Shown here in pieces: positions 3,450 to 37,551 of a stretch of DNA of 64,000 bases. Numbering within the stretch: the first letter of the stretch is position 1; the number at the start of each line of letters is the position of its first letter. The notes beneath the pieces were generated by a model. The model had not been told where the DNA came from, did no database searches, and saw only the letters and a program-made list of their open reading frames with translations. This stretch comes from an uncultured Alphaproteobacteria bacterium (GTDB lineage: Bacteria; Pseudomonadota; Alphaproteobacteria; Micropepsales; Micropepsaceae): NCBI GenBank assembly GCA_963766355.1, contig CAVXZV010000006.1, positions 7,096 to 71,095 on the forward strand. Direction: 5' to 3'. A program made the position numbers and the translations under genes.

Positions 3450-6007
3450 TTCCCTCCGATCAGGCCAGCAAGTCCGGCAAACGGCGAATCCTTCACCACG
3501 GCCGGCTGAGGTTCTCGCTGTTGAGGTTTGCGCCACTGATGTTCGCGTTTGTCGTGCGCGCGTCGCCACACCGAATGTGCGGTCTCGCCGGCAACCTCGG
3601 TTCTATGCCAACCAAGGGCCGTCAGCACTTCGGTCAATTCGTCATTGCTTGAGCCAAGCAGCGAAACCAATTTGGGCGTCAGCGCTTCGGCCGTTAGGCC
3701 TTCGATGATCCCTTTCTCCAGGACATCTTCGAGCCGCTCCAGCATGTCGAGGCGGATAGCGCGCCCGGCGATCGCGCGGAATCCCGCGGCCGCTAGAAAT
3801 CCGTCCGGCGCATTCGCATCGTTGACGAACGAGGTCAGCCCGGCGCGCGGCAAAGCCGGCACTTGCTCCAATTTTGTCCATACGCCCCACAACAAGGCGA
3901 GCAGCGATGCCGCATCGGGCCGCAACAATTTTGTCAGATAGATGGAGCGCCGGCCGAACCACACGCCATAAGGCCTCAAGGCGCGGATCAGCATTCGCCG
4001 GTCGCTGGGCAGGGCGAGGCGCGATGTCTCTAGAGAGCCGAAATTCTCGAGAAGTTGATGAGCAATACCGCGTGCCATTGCCGGTAACGCGTCGGCCGTT
4101 CCGGCTTTTGCTTCGACGCCAGCCTGCAGCGCAAGCAACGGTTCGAGTTTCGCCGCGATACGCGCCGTAACCCATTCCTCCAAGCGGCGCTGCACCCCGG
4201 CACGCGGTTCGCCTTTTAGATTCTCGTCAGCCAACAGCGCGACAGTGGGTGCGAGAGGCGATGAGCCGGCTATCAGCTTTGCCACGATGGCGCCGTCCCA
4301 CCAGATCCGCCCATGCTCGGTCAGCGTGATCTCATTTTCCGGCGCATTCGTCAGCCGTCCGGCCCGCGCGAAGAATTCGCCTTCCAGGCCTTTTATGGCT
4401 GCTGCCCGCAAGGCGCGTTCGTGAATGCCCGCTGCGCTTTCCGCTTGGGTGAAGCGAAAGCCGTCCAACTTGCCGATGATCTCGCCGCCGATCGCCACGC
4501 CGCCGGAATCGTCGAGCACGATCGCGGCATCGTCATCGCGCAGATGGCGCATCAGCACCGAAGTGCGCCGGTCGATAAAGCGCTGCGTCAACCGCTCATG
4601 CAGCGCATCAGACAGCCGGTCTTCGACGGCACGCGTTTGTTCCTGCCAATGCGCGCTGTCTTTGACCCAGCCCGGCCGATGCGCTGCGTATGTCCAGGTG
4701 CGCACCTGCGCCAGGCGGCCGGAGAGTGTGGCGACATCGCCTTCCACAATATCGAGCCGGGCGATTTGCCTTGCCAGCCAATCCTCCGGCAAAACGCCGT
4801 CCTCATCGGTCAGATGGAAGAAGATCGTCCGCACCAGGCGTACATGTTCGTCGCTGCTGAGCTTGTGGAAGTCCGGCAATTGGCACGCTTCCCATAAGAG
4901 TTTCACTCGGCCGGACGAGGTAATGCGGTCGCGAACTTCTTCCTGCTCGGCGAGGAGGCGCAGCGCGATCACATCGCTGGCGGGGCGCGCTTTCACCAAG
5001 CCGCGCGCCGGCGGCGGTTCGTCCAGACTGGCGATCAGCATATCGACGGAATGAAACGCCAGCGCCGAATTGCGCCATTGCAGCACGCGCACGGAATCGT
5101 AGCGATGACCTTCCACGCGCGCGACGGTTTCCTCGTCGAGCCCTTCGGCATCGCAGGTCACGCCGAATGTTCCGTCGTTCATATGTCGGCCGGCGCGCCC
5201 GGCAATCTGTCCGATCTCTTCGGGCTTCAAGGGGCGCGTGCCGAAGCCGTCGAATTTCTCCAGCGCGGAGAACGCGACGTGATCGACGCTCATATTGATG
5301 CCCATGCCGATGGCGTCCGTCGCCACCAGGAAGTCCACATCGCCGGACTGATAGAGTGCGACCTGCGCGTTGCGGGTGCGCGGGGAGAGCGCGCCCAGCA
5401 CCACCGCTGCGCCGCCGCGCTGCGTGCGGATCAGATCCGCGATGCCATAGACGTCCTCCGTCGAGAACCCGACCACGGCGGAGCGCCGCGGCAGACGCGT
5501 CAGCTTCTTCGATCCCGTATAAGCGAGGTCGGAAAACCGGGCCCGCGACATGAAATAGGTGTGCGGGGTAAAGCGCTGCAGGGCGCCGCGCATCGTGTCG
5601 GCACCGAGGAATACGGTTTCCTCTTCGCCGCGCGCATGCAGCAAGCGGTCGGTGAAGACATGGCCGCGTTCGGGATCGGCGCAAAGTTGGATTTCGTCGA
5701 CCGCCAGGAACGCCGTGCCGAGATCCACGGGCATCGCTTCCACCGTGCAGACGAAATACTTCGCCCCGGGCGGAACAATCTTTTCTTCGCCGGTGATGAG
5801 AGCGGCGAGGGGCGCGCCTTTCAGACGTACGACCTTGTCGTAAACCTCACGCGCCAGAAGCCGCAGCGGCAGGCCGATCATGCCGGATTTGTGGGCCAGC
5901 ATCCGGTCGATGGCGAAATGGGTCTTGCCGGTGTTGGTGGGCCCCAAAACGGCCGTAACGCGGCCCCCCAAAGGTGCCTTATCGTGCTGGTAGCGTTTCG
6001 GGATCAT
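3446..6007 (-). CDS. SUV3/MgpS-like helicase
   Basis: Walker A GPTNTGKT, DEIQ, ATDAIGMG, QIAGRAGR motifs; conserved helicase-S4-fdxA-carD order. Confidence 0.9.
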   Translation of the reverse strand: MIPKRYQHDKAPLGGRVTAVLGPTNTGKTHFAIDRMLAHKSGMIGLPLRLLAREVYDKVVRLKGAPLAALITGEEKIVPPGAKYFVCTVEAMPVDLGTAFLAVDEIQLCADPERGHVFTDRLLHARGEEETVFLGADTMRGALQRFTPHTYFMSRARFSDLAYTGSKKLTRLPRRSAVVGFSTEDVYGIADLIRTQRGGAAVVLGALSPRTRNAQVALYQSGDVDFLVATDAIGMGINMSVDHVAFSALEKFDGFGTRPLKPEEIGQIAGRAGRHMNDGTFGVTCDAEGLDEETVARVEGHRYDSVRVLQWRNSALAFHSVDMLIASLDEPPPARGLVKARPASDVIALRLLAEQEEVRDRITSSGRVKLLWEACQLPDFHKLSSDEHVRLVRTIFFHLTDEDGVLPEDWLARQIARLDIVEGDVATLSGRLAQVRTWTYAAHRPGWVKDSAHWQEQTRAVEDRLSDALHERLTQRFIDRRTSVLMRHLRDDDAAIVLDDSGGVAIGGEIIGKLDGFRFTQAESAAGIHERALRAAAIKGLEGEFFARAGRLTNAPENEITLTEHGRIWWDGAIVAKLIAGSSPLAPTVALLADENLKGEPRAGVQRRLEEWVTARIAAKLEPLLALQAGVEAKAGTADALPAMARGIAHQLLENFGSLETSRLALPSDRRMLIRALRPYGVWFGRRSIYLTKLLRPDAASLLALLWGVWTKLEQVPALPRAGLTSFVNDANAPDGFLAAAGFRAIAGRAIRLDMLERLEDVLEKGIIEGLTAEALTPKLVSLLGSSNDELTEVLTALGWHRTEVAGETAHSVWRRAHDKREHQWRKPQQREPQPAVVKDSPFAGLAGLIGGK

Positions 6008-6353
6008 CGCCCTGCAACATCGGTATTTTTACGCCGAAGTACAAGCAAAAGGCCTACGGGCGAGCGCGTCGCATTCCGAAAAATCCACAATAAGAACGAT
6101 GTGCGAACGAACGCCGTCCGAATCGCTAACCGACTCAATATCAGCCTTTGTTCTCATACTATAGGGGGTTTGTCAAGACTCGGACGGCACAAGTACTTGT
6201 GGATAGGCCGAACCATGGAGTCTCGCCGACTTATCCACGGAAACCTCCGTATGCTGAGCAACGTGACGTTTTCCCGACGGAATTTTGACAGCGGTAAAAC
6301 GCCCTTTGACCCTCTTTGAGCCGTGCGATACTCCCCCCGCTCCGGAGAAAACA

Positions 6354-8492
6354 ATGGCTGACAAGATACCCAAGGCCTGGGCGGCCCTCGCCGCGAAGGA
6401 ACTCAAAGACCGCCCGGTGGAAAGTCTTGTTTGGCCCGCGCCGGAAGGCTTCGCCATCAAGCCGCTCTACACCGCCGCCGATCTGGAAGGTATCGAGGCG
6501 GCGGATTCGCTGCCCGGGCTGTCCCCGTTTATGCGCGGCGTGCGCGCCACCATGTACACCGGGCGGCCTTGGACCATTCGTCAATATGCGGGTTTCTCCA
6601 CGGCTGAAGAGTCGAACGCCTTTTACCGCAAGAACCTCGCCGCCGGGCAGATGGGGCTCTCCGTCGCCTTCGATTTGCCCACCCATCGCGGCTATGACAG
6701 CGATCATCCGCGCGTCGGAGGCGATGTCGGCAAGGCAGGCGTCGCCATCGATTCCGTCGAAGACATGAAGATCCTGTTCGCCGGCATCCCGCTCGACAAA
6801 ATGAGCGTGTCGATGACCATGAACGGCGCGGTCATTCCGATCATGGCGAATTTCATCGTGGCGGCGGAGGAGCAGGGCGTTGCGCTGAACAAACTCTCCG
6901 GCACTATTCAGAACGACATTCTCAAAGAATTTATGGTGCGCAATACCTACATTTATCCGCCCGCACCCAGTATGCGCATCGTCGCCGATATCATCGAATA
7001 TTCGGCGCAAAATATGCCGAAATTCAATTCGATCTCGATCAGCGGCTATCATATGCACGAAGCCGGTGCGACGGCCGTGCAAGAGCTCGCGTTCACGCTG
7101 GCCGACGGCATCGAATATGTCCGCACGGCGCTGAACAAGGGCCTGGAAGTCGACGCCTTCGCGCCGCGGCTGTCATTCTTCTTCGGCATCGGCATGAACT
7201 TCTTCATGGAGATCGCCAAGTTGCGTGCGGCGCGGTTATTATGGGCGCAGATTATGACGGGTTTCGGCGCCAAGAAGCCCGAGAGCTTGATGCTGCGCAC
7301 CCATTGTCAGACCTCCGGCGTGTCGCTGACCGAGCAGGATCCCTACAACAACATCGTGCGCACGGCCTATGAGGCGCTGGCGGCAGTGCTCGGCGGCACG
7401 CAATCGCTGCACACCAATTCTTTCGACGAAGCCATCGCGCTGCCGACCGAATTCTCCGCCCGCATCGCCCGCAACACCCAGCTCATTCTGCAAAACGAAA
7501 CACTGGTGACCAAAACCGTCGATCCGCTTGGCGGTTCTTATTATGTCGAGGCATTGACTCATTCGCTCGCCGTTCACGCCAAGAAGATCATCGACGAAGT
7601 AGAAGCAATGGGCGGCATGACGAAAGCGGTAGAAGCGGGCACGCCCAAGCTCGCCATCGAAGAATCGGCGGCCCGCCGCCAAGCCCGCATCGACAAAGGC
7701 GAAGACGTGATCGTCGGCGTCAACCGCTATGAACTGGACAATGCCGATGCGGTCGAGACTCGCGATATCGACAATGCGGCGGTGCGCGATTCCCAGATTG
7801 CCCGTCTGAAGGACGTCAAAGCCAAACGCGATCCTGCCAAAGTCGAAGCCGCTCTAACGGCCTTGCGCAAAGGGGCGGCCGGCAACGCCAACCTGCTCAC
7901 ACTGGCGGTCGAGGCCGCTCGGGTCCGCGCCACCGTCGGCGAAATCTCCGACGCCATCGAGAAAGTGCATCTGCGCCATCGCGCCGTCACTCGCACGATC
8001 TCCGGCGTTTACGGCGGAGCCTTCGAAGGGGACAACGAGTTTGCCGCGTTGAAGGGCGAGGTCGAAGCCTTCACCAAATCGTCCGGCAAACCACCGCGCA
8101 TTCTCGTCGCCAAAATGGGCCAAGACGGCCACGACCGCGGCTCCAAAGTCATTGCCAGCGCCTTTGCCGATATCGGTTTCAAAGTGGACATCGGCGAATT
8201 GTTTTTGACGCCCGAAGAAGTCGCCAAAGAAGCAGTGGCCGCTTGCGTGCATGTGGTGGGCATTTCCAGCCTCGCGGCAGGCCACAAGACTCTGGTGCCC
8301 GAATTGATCGCGGCGCTAAAAAAGGAAAAAGCGGATACGCTTGTGGTTGTCGGCGGAGTCATCCCGCCGCAAGATTACGCCTTCTTGAAGAAGGCGGGTG
8401 TCGCGGCCATCTTCGGTCCCGGCACCAATATTCCGGATGCCGCACGGAACGTGCTGAACTTGGTGCCGGACCAAGGATTGAGGCTTACTTGA
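6354..8492 (+). CDS. scpA: Methylmalonyl-CoA mutase
   Basis: [29 protein letters not shown]12-binding QDGHDRG. Confidence 0.95.
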
Positions 8493-9485
8493 GTCCCTTC
8501 ATGAACGCGTTCATTTCGCGGATAACATCCGCTTCGTTCGAGAGCCACACGATATGGTTCGCGTAGGGCAGGCGTACGACGCGCGCCGTGGGGACGCCGG
8601 CTTGGAAAGCGTTCGACTGCTGGGTCATAAAGGCGAGGTCTTGCTCGGCATTGGCTTTCGCCTCGGGCTTGGGATCGCGCGGACGAATCGTGCGGCACTG
8701 CGAAGATGGCGAGTACCGGCGCGTTGATTGTGGTGTATTTCCGCACGCCGAAAACAATGGCGCTGGCGATAGCCGTCTCGGGCGTTGCCGGTGGTTGTTG
8801 CGCGCCGGGTGGCATGGGGGGAGCAGCCTGAATCTCCGCAAGCTCCTTTTCGAGATCACTCCGAATAAGTTCCAGATCGCCCGATTGCAGAAGATCTTCG
8901 ATTGGCGCTGAGCATCGGCGGGACTTTCCATGTAATTCCAATGATCGAGTCGGCGGCGCAAATCATTGAGGTCGACGATCATGTTACCATGAGCACGATC
9001 GTAGAATGCGTAACCGCCGGCCGCTTCCAAATAGATTAGCCCGTCACCTTCTCGGGATGTCGGCTTCCGATGGAACTCAGTTCCTTGCCCGCAAAAGAGT
9101 GGCCTGCCACGACCGGCCGGTCTAGTTTCAGCGCGGCGATCACGGCGAGAACATCATCGCCCAGCCGGTCCGCGGCATAGTTCTCCTCGGTAGGTAGCGG
9201 CTTGCTCGATCTTGCCATAGCCGCGCCGGGTTATGCCGTAGACGTGATGATCTGGCCGTGAATTTCGGTGCGAGGCTGTCGAAGTCGTGCGCCGTATGGC
9301 CAAAGCCCGCCAGAAACACCAGCGCACGGCCGTTGCCGCCCCAGTCGAGCACTTCTAGCTCTACGTCTGTCGACCGCTATGAATTGCACTTTGTGCGGCG
9401 AGGTGTCGGGCGCGATCGGTGTCCGTGCCTGGCAGAGTTGAGCAGCAAACAACAAACAGCAAAAGAACATCAGAACGCGCTTCAT
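8485..9485 (-). pseudogene. Secreted alpha/beta hydrolase split by several frameshifts
   Basis: Successive frames give signal peptide, [35 protein letters not shown] nucleophile elbow and PYANHIVWLSNEADV. Confidence 0.75.
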
Positions 9486-9654
9486 GGCGTTGCCCCATCT
9501 GACTGCCGACTGGTTCCATGCGCGCGCAAATCCGAGCAAAAATAAGGCGAGACGGCTTCAAATCGGCGACGCGCAAGCTGAGCTGACAAAAACTTCTTGA
9601 AACAAATCTGCACAAAGGCCAAACACCGGGCGCAATTTCTCGGCGGAGTATGGC

Positions 9655-10533
9655 ATGACGCGCGTTTTGGTTATCGGTCCCGGTGCCATCGGCTGCACCG
9701 TCGGCGCGGCGCTGATCGAAGCCGGTCACGATGTGATCTTTTGTGCTCGGCAATCCTTCGCGCGCGTTTCGGTGCAGAAGGCGGGCGAGGCTGCAAAGAT
9801 ATTTCCGGCTCGCGTAACCACGTCGGAGAAAGATCTTGCCTCCGCCGATTGGGTTCTGCTTTGCGTTAAGGCGCATCAGGTGCCGTCTGCCGCGGGATGG
9901 CTCGGCGCCGCTATCGGCCCGCATACCAAGCTTGCCGTGCTGCAGAACGGCGTCGAACATCGCGAGCGCGTCGAGCCTTATCTGCCGCCAGGCACTCCTA
10001 TCGTGCCGGTTGTCGTGGAGCTTCCGGTTTCGCGCCAAGCGGCGGGCGAAGTCGTCTGGCGCAGGATCGCGTTGCTCACGGTTTCGGACGATGCGGCCGG
10101 AAAAGAATTCTGCAGCTTGTTCGCGGGCTCATTCATCCGTGCCGAGACATCGGACGATCTTATCACGGTCGCTTGGAAAAAACTTTGTCTCAACGCACCG
10201 GGCGGGGCGATCCTTTCGCTGACGGGTCAGCCGATGCGCGTGTTCCACAAGCCAGGCATTGCCGATGTCGCACGCTCCATCTTGGCGGAGTGTGTCGCGG
10301 TCGGCCGCGCCGAAGGAGCGAAGTTGGACGAGGGCCTGATCGAGCCGCAGATCGCATTCTTCCTGAGGGCGGGACCGGACGAAGGCAATTCGATGTATGT
10401 CGATCGCATGGCGGGTCGCGAAATGGAATGGGACGCGCGCAATGCGGTGATCGTCCGCAAAGGCGCGCGCCATGGCATCCCCACGCCGGTCAGCGCGGCG
10501 CTGGTGCCGCTGTTGGCGGCGCTGACGTCTTAG
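9655..10533 (+). CDS. panE: Ketopantoate reductase family oxidoreductase
   Basis: VIGPGAIG Rossmann motif, LCVKA, LQNGVEH, WKKLCLN, SMYVDR. Confidence 0.8.
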   Translation: MTRVLVIGPGAIGCTVGAALIEAGHDVIFCARQSFARVSVQKAGEAAKIFPARVTTSEKDLASADWVLLCVKAHQVPSAAGWLGAAIGPHTKLAVLQNGVEHRERVEPYLPPGTPIVPVVVELPVSRQAAGEVVWRRIALLTVSDDAAGKEFCSLFAGSFIRAETSDDLITVAWKKLCLNAPGGAILSLTGQPMRVFHKPGIADVARSILAECVAVGRAEGAKLDEGLIEPQIAFFLRAGPDEGNSMYVDRMAGREMEWDARNAVIVRKGARHGIPTPVSAALVPLLAALTS

Positions 10534-32836: not shown

Positions 32837-33826
32837 CTAATCCGCCGTTTCCTGACGCGCGCTCGCGCGATACGCGGCGGCATGGCGTTGGGCGATCACG
32901 GCGCAGACCATCAATTGCATCTGATGGAACAGCATCAACGGTACGATCATCGGCCCCAGCAATGCTGGGGGAAACAACACCCCGGCCATCGGCACGCCGG
33001 AGGCCAAACTCTTTTTCGAACCGCAAAACACGATGGCGATTTCATCTTCGCGCGACATGCCGAGGCGCCGCGATATCCAAGTCGTGGTCACTAGCGCCAG
33101 CGCCAGGATCAGTGCGTCCAGACCCAGCGTCCAGCCCAGATCGAGCGCGGAATAGCGGTGCCACAATCCTTCGATCACCGCCGCGCTGAACGCGGTGTAA
33201 ACCACCAGCAGAATGGCGCTACGGTCGACCCGTCCCACAATCGTTTTGTGGCGCTCCAAAAAACCGCGCGTAATGGGCCGTGACAGATGGCCGAGAATGA
33301 ACGGCAAGAGCAATTGCAGCGCAATGGCCTCGACGGAATTCAGCGAAATCCCGCCATGCATCCCGCGCAGCAGAAACAATCCGGTCAGCAGCGGCGTGAC
33401 GAAAATTCCCAGCAGGTTCGACGCCGAAGCGCTGCACACTGCGGCGGGCACATTGCCATGCGCAATCGAAGTGAAGGCGATGGAAGATTGCACGGTCGAT
33501 GGCAACAAGCAGAGGAACAGAATGCCGTCGGCGATCACCGGATTGAGCCAGCCGTGACTGACCGCGCGCAGCACCAATCCCATGGCGGGAAACAGAATAA
33601 AGGTCGCGGCCAGCACCAGCGCATGAATGCGCCAGGCGCCCAGTCCCGCCAGGATCGCTTCGCCCGACAGCTTGGCGCCGTGCAGGAAGAAGAGCAGGGC
33701 GATGGCCGCATCGGTGATCCAAGCCATGATCTGCGCGAACTCGCCCGAGCAGGGCAGCACGCTCGCCAGCGCCACCGTCGCCACCAGGGCGAGGATGAAG
33801 GGATCGATCTTCAGCAGCTTCAGCAT
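32837..33826 (-). CDS. Bile acid:sodium symporter family (YfeH-like)
   Basis: LFFLHGAKLS, LPSTVQSSIAFTSIAHGNVPAAVCSAS, FCGSKKSLASGVPMA. Confidence 0.9.
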   Translation of the reverse strand: MLKLLKIDPFILALVATVALASVLPCSGEFAQIMAWITDAAIALLFFLHGAKLSGEAILAGLGAWRIHALVLAATFILFPAMGLVLRAVSHGWLNPVIADGILFLCLLPSTVQSSIAFTSIAHGNVPAAVCSASASNLLGIFVTPLLTGLFLLRGMHGGISLNSVEAIALQLLLPFILGHLSRPITRGFLERHKTIVGRVDRSAILLVVYTAFSAAVIEGLWHRYSALDLGWTLGLDALILALALVTTTWISRRLGMSREDEIAIVFCGSKKSLASGVPMAGVLFPPALLGPMIVPLMLFHQMQLMVCAVIAQRHAAAYRASARQETAD

Positions 33827-33849
33827 CTAAATTGGTGTCGGAGTAGAAT

Positions 33850-34555
33850 TCATTGGCGCTTATTGCGCTTGGCATTGGGCCGCCGGCCTTTTGGCAGCGG
33901 CGCCACACGGCGCTTGGCGGCTTTGGCGATTTGCCGCTGGAAATCCTTATCGCCCAGCGCCCAGCCGCCATTGGTGGCGGCGCGCAGATCGTCGACGAAC
34001 GTCTCGTCGAGTTTGCGGCGGCACAATGCGCGATATGCCTTCTGCCGTTCGGCAATGCTGCGGCCCAGCCGGCGGAATAGCGGATGATCGCTGACTAGCG
34101 CGTCGGGCTTGCCCAAGGCATGGGCCGGATAGCTCGACCAGCGATAATCGCGCGGATGATCCACCAACCCGGCGCGCACGGGATTGAGTTCGATATAACG
34201 GCAACAGCCAAGAAAATATTCATCGCTGTCGATAGGGCGCGGCCCGGTAGCGCCCCTCCCACAAGGTTCCCGTCCACCCCTTTTCAAAGTTGACATAGCG
34301 CACATAGCGCCGGCCCAGCGATTGCATTAGGCGGGGCAGGCTGTCCTTCTTTTCCGGCGTCGCCAGAATATGAACATGGTCGGGCATCAGCACGTAAGAG
34401 TGAACGGCACAGCCATAGTCCTCCGCGGCCTCGGCGAGCCAGGCTCGATAGCGCAGGTAATTCTCATCCTCGAAGAAAATGTCCTGCCGATCGCTGCCGC
34501 GCTGGATCACATGCAGCAGCCGATCGGCGACGAAGTAGCGTCCCAAACGCGCCAT
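33850..34555 (-). mobile_element. REP-associated tyrosine transposase (RAYT, Y1 HUH), frameshift near 34240
   Basis: HVIQRG, YVLMPDHVHILATP, LWEGRYRA / CRYIELNPVRAGLV...WSSY. Confidence 0.85.
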
Positions 34556-34594
34556 ATGCCTTCTCATCGCAGGATTGCGGACATAGAATAGGCC

Positions 34595-35032
34595 ATGGCG
34601 CAAATAAAATCTACTCTGACCCTGATTGTTCCGTTTATCGCAACTCTCGGCTATCTGCTACTATTTGCGCATTTGGCAATTTCCTTTTCCTATTGGGATT
34701 ATTTGACTTCAATTGGTCTTGGAGATGTTACTTCAAAGATATTGGGGGCATATGCGATCGGCAGTTTACTGATGATGTTTGGGGCGGGTCTGCGCTTTTT
34801 CCGCCGCGACGCGGATGTACAATTTTCCACATTGTGCCTGATTCTGAGCATACCCTTTCTTTGGTACCGCTTGGCGCCCGAGCTCTTCCAATCCTTGACA
34901 GGCGGTTATTGGGCCGCGCCTGGAAAATACATGACGCCCGAACCGTTGGCGGGTGCCGACCTTGCTGTGATCTTCAGTTATGTGGTCACCAGTACCCTGC
35001 GCGGGCGCCAACGGTGCTCAGCCAAGGAATGA
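34595..35032 (+). CDS. Hypothetical multi-TM membrane protein
   Basis: AT-richer ORF with hydrophobic segments; N-terminus (KSTLT) encoded by the repeat motif. Confidence 0.6.
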   Translation: MAQIKSTLTLIVPFIATLGYLLLFAHLAISFSYWDYLTSIGLGDVTSKILGAYAIGSLLMMFGAGLRFFRRDADVQFSTLCLILSIPFLWYRLAPELFQSLTGGYWAAPGKYMTPEPLAGADLAVIFSYVVTSTLRGRQRCSAKE

Positions 35033-35126
35033 GGTATACCGTGACTGTCGCGACCTAAAATCTCATCCGCGCGGAATTCGGCTGAAGGAACGTGGTCGGA
35101 GTGGATTTAACTCCAGGAGGCGTACG

Positions 35127-35834
35127 ATGTATTTGAGAATTGCGCGCGCGTTACTCCTATTTCTTGCGATGTCGGGTAGCAGCGCCGCCGGTGTCGGCCT
35201 CCACGACCTGCCGGATAAGACGCTTTCGGATTTGATGGGAAGGGCGGGGCTGCGAAGCGCTTGGCGTGTAGAGCAGTATTGGTTTCGAAACGAATGGCGC
35301 GTGTATGCATACGCCGCTCCTCGCCAATCGACTTCGGACTTCTGTAGCACCGAGAGAACAAGTCTTTTCATAAGACAACGGGAAAACCAGAAGTTGGATA
35401 TATACCGCGTAGAAAAGAACCTTGTCGTGCTGCGTGGATTTTGTGCCGATAACTATACCGAGCAGGAGTTTGATGCCGGTACCGTGCCAGGACATTTAAC
35501 CGAGGTCGAGCTTATAAAATTTATCCACATGATTACGTCGCTAATCAATACGGGCGCAATCGGCAAGTCGGGAATATCGGTTGCGTTCAATTGCCCTGGC
35601 ACATCCGTTCCATCGGATTGCGCGGACGCAAGACAAGCTACGCGTAAACTGAAACTTGAAGAGCTATTTTCTATCGATGCAAGCCATCCGGATTCGGTCG
35701 CGTTTAATTTTGCTGTGAAGATGCCAGGCAGGATGCCACGCGCTGAGGCATTGGTTTTTGACTTTCCCCGGCTGCAGGAAAAAAACGCTACGGTGAAAAT
35801 CTCTCTCGAAGATGTTATAGATGTCGCACGATAA
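35127..35834 (+). CDS. Hypothetical secreted protein
   Basis: AGGAGG RBS, signal peptide MYLRIARALLLFLAMSGSSAAG, lower GC. Confidence 0.65.
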   Translation: MYLRIARALLLFLAMSGSSAAGVGLHDLPDKTLSDLMGRAGLRSAWRVEQYWFRNEWRVYAYAAPRQSTSDFCSTERTSLFIRQRENQKLDIYRVEKNLVVLRGFCADNYTEQEFDAGTVPGHLTEVELIKFIHMITSLINTGAIGKSGISVAFNCPGTSVPSDCADARQATRKLKLEELFSIDASHPDSVAFNFAVKMPGRMPRAEALVFDFPRLQEKNATVKISLEDVIDVAR

Positions 35835-35853
35835 ACGGTGCGACACAGATTGT

Positions 35854-35933
35854 TGCCGCGCTGGATCTCGGCCGATCGGCGACGAAGGTGCGTCCCAGAC
35901 GCGCCTTCTCATCGCAGGGTTGCGGAGGTAGAA
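35854..35933 (-). pseudogene. Relic of a RAYT 5' end and upstream region
   Basis: Aligns with 34495-34588 (CCGATCGGCGACGAAG, CGTCCCARACGCGCC, TTCTCATCGCAGGRTTGCGGA). Confidence 0.7.
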
Positions 35934-36005
35934 GCGGGGTTATTGGCGGGGTTATTGGGGTTAGAGTGGATTTAGTCCATCCATAAAGACGATAATAGGC
36001 GTGCG

Positions 36006-36239
36006 ATGGCAGGTGACGAAGGAGGAGCGGGCCACAAAACCCAACCGTCAAAATCCCACCATCTCAAACTCTGGCGGGATATTCTAAGGCACCCTGGTTT
36101 GCAGTGGGCGCTTCTACTTTTGATCCTGTTCTTGATCGCTCTGTTTGCCGCTTACGAATCTCGTCACCCGGGTATCTGCTCGGGTCCGTCGCGTCCTCGT
36201 TGGTGCGATCACAGAGCGGGGCGAGGCGGCTTCCGTTAG
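36006..36239 (+). CDS. Possible small TM protein
   Basis: One hydrophobic segment; weak RBS. Confidence 0.3.
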   Translation: MAGDEGGAGHKTQPSKSHHLKLWRDILRHPGLQWALLLLILFLIALFAAYESRHPGICSGPSRPRWCDHRAGRGGFR

Positions 36240-36591
36240 ATCGAGTAACTGTGGGGGCTTTTTGACGGCGCGCGATCGGCCGGCAATCCGTTGGTCTATC
36301 GCCGCAGGCCGCCCTAAAGTTCCTGTATCGACGGTCAGATGATCGAACGGAACCTTCCTTATGCGGATTTAAGGACCATGAGGGTGCGGTAAAGCGCCTT
36401 GGCAAGCTCAGGTGAAATCTGCGGAATATTAAGTAACTGCTTGAATATCCAAGGATAATATCTATATCGGTGCCGCTTCTGCCCGGCCCCGCTCGCGCCC
36501 TTTACCTCAGATTGACACGGCTGAGCGACATTGCCACTTTCCCGGCCCTTTTCGGGCAGAGTGTAATCGCCGCCGCCCCAACCGAGACGCC

Positions 36592-37551
36592 ATGCACGCC
36601 TATCTCGATTTCGAACGTCCCATCGCCGAACTCGAAGGCAAAATCGTCGAGCTGCGCCAGCTTGCGGCGCAGGACCCGGCGATGCAGATCGATTCCGATG
36701 TCGCGCGCTTGCAAGCCAAAGCGGATCAGCTGGTCAAGGACACCTATGCCAAGCTGACGCCTTGGCAAAAAGTGCAAGTGGCGCGCCATCCCGGCCGGCC
36801 GCATTTCGCCGACTACGCCTCCTCGCTGTTCGACGAATTCACGCCGCTGGCAGGCGACCGCCTCTATGGCGAAGACGAAGCGGTGATCGCAGCGCTGGCA
36901 CGCTTCCGCGGCCGCGCCGTGGCCGTGATCGGTCACGAGAAGGGCAACGACACCAAATCGCGCCTTCAGCACAATTTCGGCATGGCCCATCCCGAAGGCT
37001 ATCGCAAAGCGCAGCAAATCTTCGCGCTGGCGGAGCGTTTTGGCCTGCCTGTGATTTCGCTGGTCGATACCTCCGGGGCGTTCAGCGGCGTCGCCGCCGA
37101 AGAGCGCGGGCAGGCGGAAGCCATCGCGCGGTCGACCCAAGCCGGTCTCGATCTGCGCGTGCCGTTTGTCGCCACCATTATCGGCGAAGGCGGTTCCGGC
37201 GGCGCGCTGGCGCTATCCACTGCCAACCGCATCTACATGCTGGAGAACTCGGTCTATTCGGTGATTTCGCCGGAGGGTTGCGCCTCCATCCTCTGGCGCA
37301 AGCCCGAGAAGACACAGGACGCCGCCGCGGCGCTGCGCATGACGGCGCAAGATCTTCTCGGCTTGGGCGTCATCGATGCCATTATTCCCGAGCCGGTGGG
37401 CGGCGCCCATCGCAGCCCCGAGGAGACCATCACGGCCGTAGGCGAAACCATCGCCCGCGCCTTGGCCGAGCTTTCGGGCCTGTCTCCCGACGACTTGCGT
37501 TCCCAGCGCCGCCAAAAATTCCTCGCCATGGGCCGCGATCTCACGAAATAA
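36592..37551 (+). CDS. accA: Acetyl-CoA carboxylase carboxyltransferase alpha
   Basis: [59 protein letters not shown]. Confidence 0.96.

Follow-up and report, generated by a model that had tools for sequence, protein, structure and literature searches.

How did a single transposase gene and a row of short, AT-rich open reading frames (ORFs), set off from one another by copies of one motif, come to lie side by side between a transporter gene and accA? The question is raised by a 64,000-nucleotide stretch of DNA (the window) from an uncultured alphaproteobacterium of the family Micropepsaceae (GenBank assembly GCA_963766355.1, contig CAVXZV010000006.1, positions 7,096 to 71,095 of the forward strand), in which the interval is delimited by a gene of the SBF transporter family on the left (32837-33826, minus strand) and by accA on the right (36592-37551). 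An earlier note, written from the letters of the window, had proposed a new subgroup of RAYTs (tyrosine transposases associated with repetitive extragenic palindromes, REPs) that captures or shuffles single-gene cassettes. The unit belongs instead to an already published class, TIRYT/TIRtron, in which RAYT-like genes lie between long terminal inverted repeats (TIRs) and not REPs (Di Nocera, De Gregorio & Rocco 2013, BMC Genomics 14:522; PMC3733652). With a probability of roughly 0.58, we read the locus as a TIRtron accompanied by tandem non-autonomous derivatives, some of them gene-carrying, within a hypervariable islet that is remodelled by recombination between the repeats. New here are the array of gene-carrying derivatives and its dynamics at the level of strains; the element class itself is known.

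The end repeat and its transposase

The motif reads close to GGGGTCAGAGTrGATTT and occurs four times between the SBF gene and accA. A degenerate copy on the plus strand (33836-33850, GTGTCGGAGTAGAATT) and an exact copy on the minus strand (34607-34621) enclose the transposase gene in inverted orientation, and two plus-strand copies with one mismatch each precede ORF2 (35094-35108) and ORF3 (35959-35973), just as the earlier note had described. With up to three mismatches the window contains five matches against 1.38 expected, a number reached in 0 of 100 shuffled sequences. In the whole genome (4.54 Mb; G000, with C8, C12, C19 and C23 as other contigs) a strict pattern occurs five times, three of them at the TIRtron locus, and a Poisson estimate for this clustering is about 1e-10; the version of the estimate based on a position weight matrix (PWM) is partly circular because the PWM seeds include copies from the locus. 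The PWM scan of the genome returned 16 strong and about 45 weaker matches, compared with 32 in a shuffled genome at the weaker threshold, and these matches, inverted doublets included, cluster on C8 and C12.

When one genome per species was scanned, 561 confirmed relatives of the transposase were obtained. The best 80 of these 561 loci were examined; they belong to Alpha-, Beta- and Gammaproteobacteria, Nitrospirota, Nitrospinota, a metagenome-assembled genome (MAG) of Verrucomicrobiota and others. In 750 kb of DNA from the 80 loci the exact 10-mer GGGTCAGAST was found 158 times against about three expected, so the enrichment beside homologues on which the earlier note had staked its proposal is real. 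The strand of the 10-mer is equally regular, with 45 copies on '+' and 1 on '-' within 150 bp upstream of the gene and 35 on '-' and 4 on '+' within 150 bp downstream. An inverted arrangement around the gene is present at 29 of the 80 loci by the exact 10-mer, and at more if mismatches are allowed; in relatives of the same genus the transposase homologue stands alone, bracketed by inverted copies of GGGGTCAGAGT. The transposases of this clade have the motif as their cognate end repeat, and its core, unchanged across phyla beside the enzyme, argues for continued recognition.

The conserved part of the motif is GGGGTCAGA(G/C)T. The tetranucleotide GTAG or GTGG, to which the earlier note had drawn attention, lies outside it and is replaced by CTCG in most other lineages: beta- and gammaproteobacterial homologues carry GGGGTCAGACTCGA, with GACTCGA in place of GTAG across the clade. 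Because GTAG/GTGG is not conserved in the clade, the parallel with GTAG-headed REPs is coincidental. The tip GGGGTCAG is found in L145 (a closely related metagenome contig), in G044 (a sister species), in relatives and in three of the four window copies within 1-2 changes, and it fits the consensus GGGGWSAS. As had been remarked, the motif is barely palindromic; its minimum free energy as DNA is 0 to -3 kcal/mol with z-scores of -0.2 to +1.3, hence no hairpin beyond that of shuffled sequences. An Rfam scan of window positions 33000-37000 at a permissive threshold gave no match, and a full-text literature search for the motif as a literal string returned unrelated primers only.

The transposase gene (33850..34555, minus strand) encodes 234 amino acids when intact. 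Pfam Y1_Tnp matched the N-terminal part of the window gene with E = 6.9e-13 and the intact allele with E = 5.8e-14, the HUH motif (DHVHIL) and the tyrosine helix (RYIELNPVRA) are present, and distant matches in the PDB were 2XM3 and 4ER8, structures of ISDra2 TnpA and E. coli TnpA-REP. The NCBIfam model REP_Tyr_transpos scored 73.7 bits, under its 80-bit cut-off, and the IS200-type model NF033573 scored 17.9 bits against a cut-off of 55. Past the Y1 core the protein has a tail of about 100 amino acids. The element is single-copy in its genome, where the Y1 paralogues are just 37-44% identical to it and have differing flank motifs of their own (GGGGACAyAATAC; GGTGACAGGAGTAC).

In the window assembly the reading frame is broken by one extra C at 34238. 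The earlier note had therefore spoken of a RAYT in need of repair, which is correct for the window copy; the extra C is missing from the contigs L143, L145 and L147 as well as from three metagenome contig pieces that cover the position, among them contigs of two soil metagenome runs (X1, X2). L143, a short-read contig from another sample, reads through as ...WEGRYRAAPIDSDEY..., and this alignment also rules out a T insertion in a decaying pseudogene. The sources of the intact allele are not all independent, since at least one run contig is identical with the L147 contig. As other assemblies lack the extra C, the transposase is not a population-wide pseudogene; L145 and L147 each encode the intact protein, and the ratio of non-synonymous to synonymous substitution rates (dN/dS) between them is 0.17, indicating purifying selection. 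The G044 gene carries an independent -1 frameshift a few codons away together with a 74-nt deletion at the 3′ end, and this copy may really be decaying. In the strain represented by X2 and L147 the flanks are nearly identical and the 3′ half of the gene is strongly divergent (window 33862-34110), with 78 differences in a 2.2-kb contig and dS = 0.32 relative to L145; this suggests an allelic replacement inside the transposase gene.

GGGGWSAS is common to many TIRs of TIRYTs, which occur as modest families of single, dimeric and grouped copies (PMC3733652), and most TIRYTs were assigned to TnpA-REP subclass 2.1, which has a C-terminal helix-turn-helix (HTH)-like extension (Quentin et al. 2018; PMC6006769); the class and the subclass are probably the same. 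The present unit agrees with TIRYT/TIRtron in its RAYT-homologous Y1 HUH gene, its long non-hairpin TIRs with the GGGGWSAS tip, the modest size of its TIR families (singles, dimers and groups) and the presence of several paralogues per genome with TIR types of their own. In the homologues L004 and G044 the 3′ TIR and the gene end overlap, and in the window copy the overlap comprises the stop codon only. The published descriptions differ in that they contain neither gene-carrying units from which the transposase is deleted, nor arrays of units alternating with AT-rich single ORFs beside the gene, nor gain and loss of blocks at TIR edges between strains.

Discussions of RAYT-type enzymes usually present them as domesticated, single-copy partners of short repeats. 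The classical RAYT/REPtron with its REP and REPIN populations (Nunvar 2010; Bertels & Rainey 2011, 2017; Ton-Hoang 2012) shares with the unit the enzyme superfamily, a gene between inverted cognate repeats, dispersed singles and inverted doublets, and one copy of each type per genome. Here, however, the repeats form no hairpins, lack a conserved GTAG head and number tens instead of hundreds; moreover, close homologues are found in phyla very distant from one another, a distribution that would agree with horizontal spread and that seems to resemble Bertels' Group 1. From the insertion sequences (ISs) of the IS200/IS605 type the element differs by ends that are inverted and not direct, by its single copy and by a score far under the cut-off of the IS200 model.

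Derivative units and variation between strains

The left TIR of the complete element (33829..33852, plus strand, ctaaattGGTGTCGGAGTAGAATT) is degenerate, with GGTGTCGG at its tip, and is homologous to the left TIR of G044 (taaattAGGGTCAGAGTAGATTTAATTGG). It overlaps the end of the transposase gene and starts 2-3 nt from the start codon of the SBF gene, whose N-terminus is about eight residues shorter than and unlike that of G044 (MMAAGPRALTKLLKIDPF vs MLKLLKIDPF; window 33821-33831). The junction of the element has accordingly remodelled the 5′ end of a housekeeping-type gene. The right TIR (34604..34632, minus strand, reverse complement GGAACAATCAGGGTCAGAGTAGATTTTAT) is traversed by ORF1 (34595..35032, plus strand, 145 amino acids), which lies between two TIR units and encodes an AT-rich predicted membrane protein. 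The next unit opens with a TIR of the 3′-end type (35086..35111, plus strand, GTGGTCGGAGTGGATTTAAC). ORF2 (35127..35834, plus strand, 235 amino acids) fills the place of the transposase body in it, and its inner right part is a relic of the transposase 5′ end on the minus strand (35848..35933), comprising the leader and about the first 23 codons. Where the right TIR of the unit is expected, the outer TIR half is partially duplicated in tandem (GCGGGGTTATTG twice; 35934..35957, plus strand). A further TIR copy (35955..35975, plus strand, TTGGGGTTAGAGTGGATTTAG) precedes the doubtful gene ORF3 (36006..36239, plus strand, 77 amino acids).

The relic corresponds to the duplicate of the RAYT start that the earlier note had seen after ORF2. 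It measures 86 bp; its alignment to 34489-34588 consists of three blocks without gaps at 90-91% identity or, if gaps are allowed, reaches 76% identity over 100 nt. It is a standard part of units that have lost the transposase and not a scar of shuffling. A 165-bp unit at C8:100354-100520, which resembles a miniature inverted-repeat transposable element (MITE), keeps the same kind of 5′ relic, as judged by eye without alignment, and three MITE-like units in the alphaproteobacterial MAG L016 keep the last 116 nt of the gene, that is, its 3′ end. The relic is therefore what internal deletion usually leaves behind in derivatives. Inverted TIRs paired at a short distance, 60-165 bp apart, were found at C12:117020/117156, C8:100354/100506, C8:148857/148941 and C12:136901/136965, and a 1.05-kb TIR pair at C8:81834-82890 surrounds one membrane ORF of 319 amino acids. 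In the L145 array the relic occurs three times, with 92.7%, 78% and 77% identity to the resident gene. There, cargo is enclosed in a complete unit composed of TIR(+) at 6499, orf326, relic and TIR(-) at 7922, signs denoting strands, and the order TIR(+), ORF2, relic is common to the window and L145. The repeat family thus includes gene-carrying units without transposase that are stacked beside the enzyme gene.

A family of 165-bp MITEs with TIRs of the GGGGTCAGAGTGGAAAC type and a conserved interior (CAGACAGCGCTCCCTCACAACAGTGTCATCTGGCGGTCGAG...) was located at C12:117020-117185, C12:118400-118555 and C23:5665-5830, and on C12 its members flank an ORF of 205 amino acids with a signal-peptide-like N-terminus. 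These TIRs represent a second subfamily, for which a matching transposase gene was not found in the genome.

The alternation of units with small AT-rich ORFs beside the gene is repeated in L016, L009/L004 and L011. The 80 loci contain 33 segments of 250-2500 bp that lie between one motif copy and the next and are not the transposase; their content of guanine plus cytosine (GC) is on average 4.7 points under that of their own locus (Wilcoxon p = 2.5e-5), and 18 of them are in '-+' orientation, that is, they lie between units. In the window the ORFs are AT-richer, as the earlier note had stated: the GC fraction is 0.52 in ORF1 and 0.51 in ORF2, compared with 0.61 in the transposase gene and 0.59 over the window as a whole. 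The inter-motif ORFs elsewhere are heterogeneous and include a cytochrome c, a PIN toxin, a zinc-ribbon membrane protein and many orphans. Pfam and NCBIfam searches with ORF1, ORF2, ORF3, the AT-rich ORFs of L004 and most inter-motif ORFs elsewhere mostly yielded no family.

A comparison of strains, which the earlier note had suggested, revealed three versions of the locus. In G044 the accA protein is 97% identical and the flanking DNA about 87%, and the order is SBF, a 173-aa AT-rich ORF, TIR(+), transposase, split TIR(-), a fragment of an IS4-family transposase, TIR(+), ORF3 and accA. Homology with the window breaks at 33828 (outer edge of the left TIR) and at about 34630 (about 3 nt outside the right TIR edge) and restarts at 35958, the 5′ edge of the TIR before ORF3. 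The right TIR core of G044 contains an IS3-family element (orfA/orfB, ends TGAGCTAGCCCGG...) with a 3-bp duplication of CTC (L120, reverse-complement 4750-5990); the TIR can serve as a target of ISs, like REPs.

The flanks of L145 are 98-99% identical to the window. Its order is SBF, TIR(+), transposase, TIR(-), orf82, TIR(+), relic, TIR(-) and ORF1, followed by TIR(+), orf326, relic, TIR(-), orf194, TIR(+), ORF2, relic, TIR(+), ORF3 and accA. The window has two blocks fewer, each amounting to one period between direct copies of TIR(-) plus relic or of TIR(+), so that gain and loss of blocks, and with them gene content, are in register with direct TIRs. One block, orf82 with the adjoining unit, is bracketed by 190-bp direct repeats; the other, 2.1 kb of L145, is missing from the window between the TIR at 35086..35111 and the next direct TIR copy. 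With respect to L145, homology breaks at 34627/34628, where the right TIR has its outer edge, and the X1 and X2 metagenome contigs show the L145-type joint at 34627. One of the two GCGGGGTTATTG copies is missing in L145, and the ORF1 segment is 93% identical between window and L145, compared with about 99% for its flanks. Close strains differ by whole blocks, and most block breakpoints between close relatives lie at TIR edges.

Genes in and between the units

For ORF2, a search of 1.84 billion representative proteins yielded only five relatives. Its N-terminus is hydrophobic and, by eye, signal-peptide-like, and the alignment of the family shows a conserved W, Q and Y and two Cys. As ORF2 has its own protein family, its DNA is not a diverged transposase body. 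Two of the homologues stand directly 3′ of Rhs toxin C-termini: P0003 (E = 1.7e-7) overlaps the stop codon of an Rhs/YD-shell protein by 4 nt, and P0004 (E = 1.2e-5) abuts a similar one. For this reason ORF2 is probably an orphan gene of the immunity type, judged from sequence context. The C-termini of the two Rhs proteins gave weak, mostly sub-threshold matches to HExxH metallopeptidases, and the small, putatively secreted proteins of the ORF2 family are therewith candidate immunity factors for an Rhs toxin with a C-terminus weakly resembling a metallopeptidase. A paralogue of ORF2 in the same genome (C12:134807-135511) lies between two doublets of a TIR variant. The region of its 3′ end is interrupted by a 1.28-kb IS5-family element (DDE_Tnp_1; L128 5640-6920 = C12:135470-136750), of which the genome contains at least 23 nearly identical copies.

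ORF1 starts 12 nt before the minus-strand motif copy, so that its first 11 codons consist of transposase leader and TIR; codons 5-11 are encoded by the motif, in agreement with the earlier note. Among 61 genomes of the genus ORF1 was found in its own genome only, and it is confined to this lineage. Relative to the L145 allele its dN/dS is 0.44-0.48, which points to mild purifying selection. The DNA of ORF3 is common to G044 and L145 and the frame is broken in both; ORF3 is probably not a gene. Motif copies bound all three ORFs, as the earlier note had described, and neither ORF1 nor ORF2 is a conserved housekeeping gene (ORF1 without match and ORF2 with only distant matches outside the lineage). 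Frameshifts in L145 affect 8652-8720, the signal-peptide region of ORF2, and 9523-9760 in ORF3, and in the X2 strain AA is inserted into a run of A close to the 3′ end of ORF2 (window 35778); these may reflect real decay or homopolymer errors of long reads.

The contexts of orf326 homologues differ, one adjoining an unrelated REP-type Y1 gene and one being without TIR, and the link of orf326 to the TIR is for that reason inconsistent. All in all, the cargo looks like accessory genes of envelope or immunity type and not like parts of a mechanism. Behind the sole Rhs-like gene of the genome (C19:1638-4364, with a ...DPTGH motif) lie an ORF that may encode a C-terminal toxin and two small, AT-rich ORFs for membrane proteins. 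After these comes a TIRtron of another TIR type, with GGGGACACTATAC at 6337(+) and 8196(-) (whole region C19:1638-8210), whose left TIR is separated from its Y1 gene by an inserted transposase gene of the IS30 family. A crude regular-expression test detected an Rhs-like gene within 6 kb in 1 of the 80 clade loci, hence no general enrichment.

Readings of the array and footprints at its ends

In the reading which we prefer, the TIRYT gene with its C-terminal extension of about 100 amino acids, intact in the population, stands between its cognate non-hairpin TIRs of about 22-26 bp (GGGGTCAGAGT). The derivatives have kept TIRs and a short transposase relic and lost the transposase body; some are empty and MITE-like, and in others, such as the unit of ORF2 in the window, an unrelated gene in opposite orientation fills the space. 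On this reading the units have piled up in a hypervariable, AT-rich accessory islet between the SBF gene and accA, where they alternate with single small ORFs such as ORF1 that were presumably acquired horizontally. TIRs would be the sites at which the enzyme cuts and joins, derivatives would be mobilised in trans by local hopping, and the array would grow and shrink by recombination between repeated copies of the TIR, with or without relic. Ordinary homologous recombination could serve for the 190-bp repeats; for the 25-bp repeats enzyme-mediated recombination or slippage may be assumed. That the enzyme makes the joints is inferred from the phylum-wide fidelity of repeat and enzyme together with the breakpoints at TIR edges.

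Several observations weigh against this reading. ORF1 and other ORFs are outside TIR pairs and may for that reason simply be target DNA. The ORF2 unit has no right TIR, and a sharp change of identity between window and L145 at about 35158 is inside ORF2 and not at a TIR. The spread of relic identities is compatible with independent arrivals as well as with old in-situ duplicates. Even at E <= 10, Pfam detected no HTH family in the C-terminal tail, where subclass 2.1 has its HTH (Bac_DnaA_C, HTH_23, HTH_28). A search in seven relatives for an empty site of the TIR-ORF-TIR unit on C8 showed the island to be without syntenic counterpart, and neither units nor cargo blocks were found at any further genomic site between other flanks and with clean ends, so that the mobility of cargo-bearing units is deduced from structure. 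Finally, we know of no experimental or biochemical study of any TIRYT.

The preferred reading has a parallel in mobile insertion cassettes such as MIC231 of Bacillus cereus and in composites flanked by MITEs or ISs, which depend on DDE transposases, generate target-site duplications and have demonstrated trans-mobilisation. As in these, element ends enclose a passenger gene without transposase (the units of orf326 in L145 and of ORF2 and the one on C8), and, after the manner of a composite transposon, cargo is also found with a non-autonomous unit on either side. The differences are the HUH Y1 enzyme, the absence of an evident target duplication and a mobility that is read from structure. The locus offers a concrete system in which to ask whether an HUH Y1 enzyme moves passenger genes, as it has defined ends, an intact allele and natural variants.

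An unlikely explanation, which nevertheless survives best among the others, takes the TIRYT for a dedicated gene-capture recombinase that nicks at TIR edges and moves TIR-bounded single-gene modules, notably of the immunity type, so that the array would be a functional store like an integron or a recombinase-associated array of immunity genes. Recombinase-associated arrays of orphan immunity genes (rAID) have reportedly been described in Bacteroidales by Ross et al. 2019. The array resembles integrons and rAID in its co-oriented, mostly promoter-less-looking single ORFs with a repeated site, beside the gene of a strand-transfer enzyme, and in at least one immunity-like cargo gene. It differs from them in that the interval contains no tyrosine recombinase of IntI or XerD type, the repeat is not a folded attC and neither attI nor Pc was identified; an exchange of cassettes is here hypothetical. 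Such a function would be consistent with the TIR before each ORF, with the alternation of units and ORFs in the independent genomes L016, L009/L004, L011 and L145, with near-identical strains that differ by blocks in register with TIRs, with an enzyme gene that is intact and under selection, with the immunity position of the ORF2 family behind Rhs toxins and the TIR-flanked ORF2 paralogue, and with the Rhs-like gene on C19 that precedes small membrane ORFs and a TIRtron. However, no cassette was found in two contexts, the cargo is heterogeneous, TIR orientation around the ORFs is inconsistent with most ORFs between units and not inside, and one breakpoint lies off the TIR. In addition, an orf326 homologue occurs without TIR, Rhs-like genes are near one of 80 loci by the crude test mentioned above, and neither an attI-like primary site nor an array promoter was identified. 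The capture and shuffling of cassettes proposed by the earlier note is accordingly retained as regards the cassette-like appearance and the variation by blocks, both of which are real; active capture by the enzyme is conjectural, given that no block was found at a second site, that the rules of orientation are loose and that one breakpoint lies inside ORF2. We consider it similarly doubtful that TIRYTs build and remodel TIR-bounded module arrays beside themselves by mobilising units which carry or flank envelope- or immunity-type genes; if true, this would constitute an HUH-enzyme counterpart of the integron or the immunity-gene island, with the GGGGTCAG tip as recombination site.

According to another explanation, to which we give rather little credence, TIRs and relics are dead tandem insertions beside an idle enzyme, and the present variation stems only from general homologous recombination between strains, IS activity and illegitimate deletion within a non-essential, AT-rich islet. 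IS3- and IS4-family sequences are indeed present in the same interval of G044, an IS5-family element is inserted beside the ORF2 paralogue, and the 190-bp direct repeats around the block with orf82 could be used by RecA. The mosaic identity with its non-TIR breakpoint, the degenerate left TIR and the missing right TIR of the ORF2 unit fit this as well. Yet the population carries an intact transposase that is subject to purifying selection, and the core motif is unchanged across phyla beside the enzyme clade. Furthermore, two of the three breakpoints between window and G044 and the 34627 joint against L145 are within a few nt of TIR edges, and the 2.1-kb indel lies between imperfect direct TIRs of 25 bp, which are too short for efficient recombination by RecA. 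Very improbable is a regulatory or RNA element (terminator, mRNA stabiliser or translation signal) between small genes with a secondary link to the transposase. In its favour, the start codons of ORF2 and ORF3 follow a motif copy at a distance of 18-32 nt, and the motif, when extended, often has GGAG-like purine runs; against it, the motif has no stable fold and no Rfam match, occurs in both orientations relative to genes and across phyla predominantly forms an inverted pair around the transposase gene.

Tandem duplication of part of the outer TIR half is not confined to the right end of the ORF2 unit: it recurs at C8:82870-82905, C23:5800-5870 and L004:495-535, and partial TIR duplications are also present near the Y1 genes of L010, L018, L019, L026, L032 and L037, for example GGAATCGGGGTCAG preceding a complete TIR. 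From these duplications a fixed cleavage point after GGGGTCAG was considered and rejected, since they are truncated at differing points, between 8 and 20 nt, and no single site is supported. The duplications may be footprints of end processing or of slippage.

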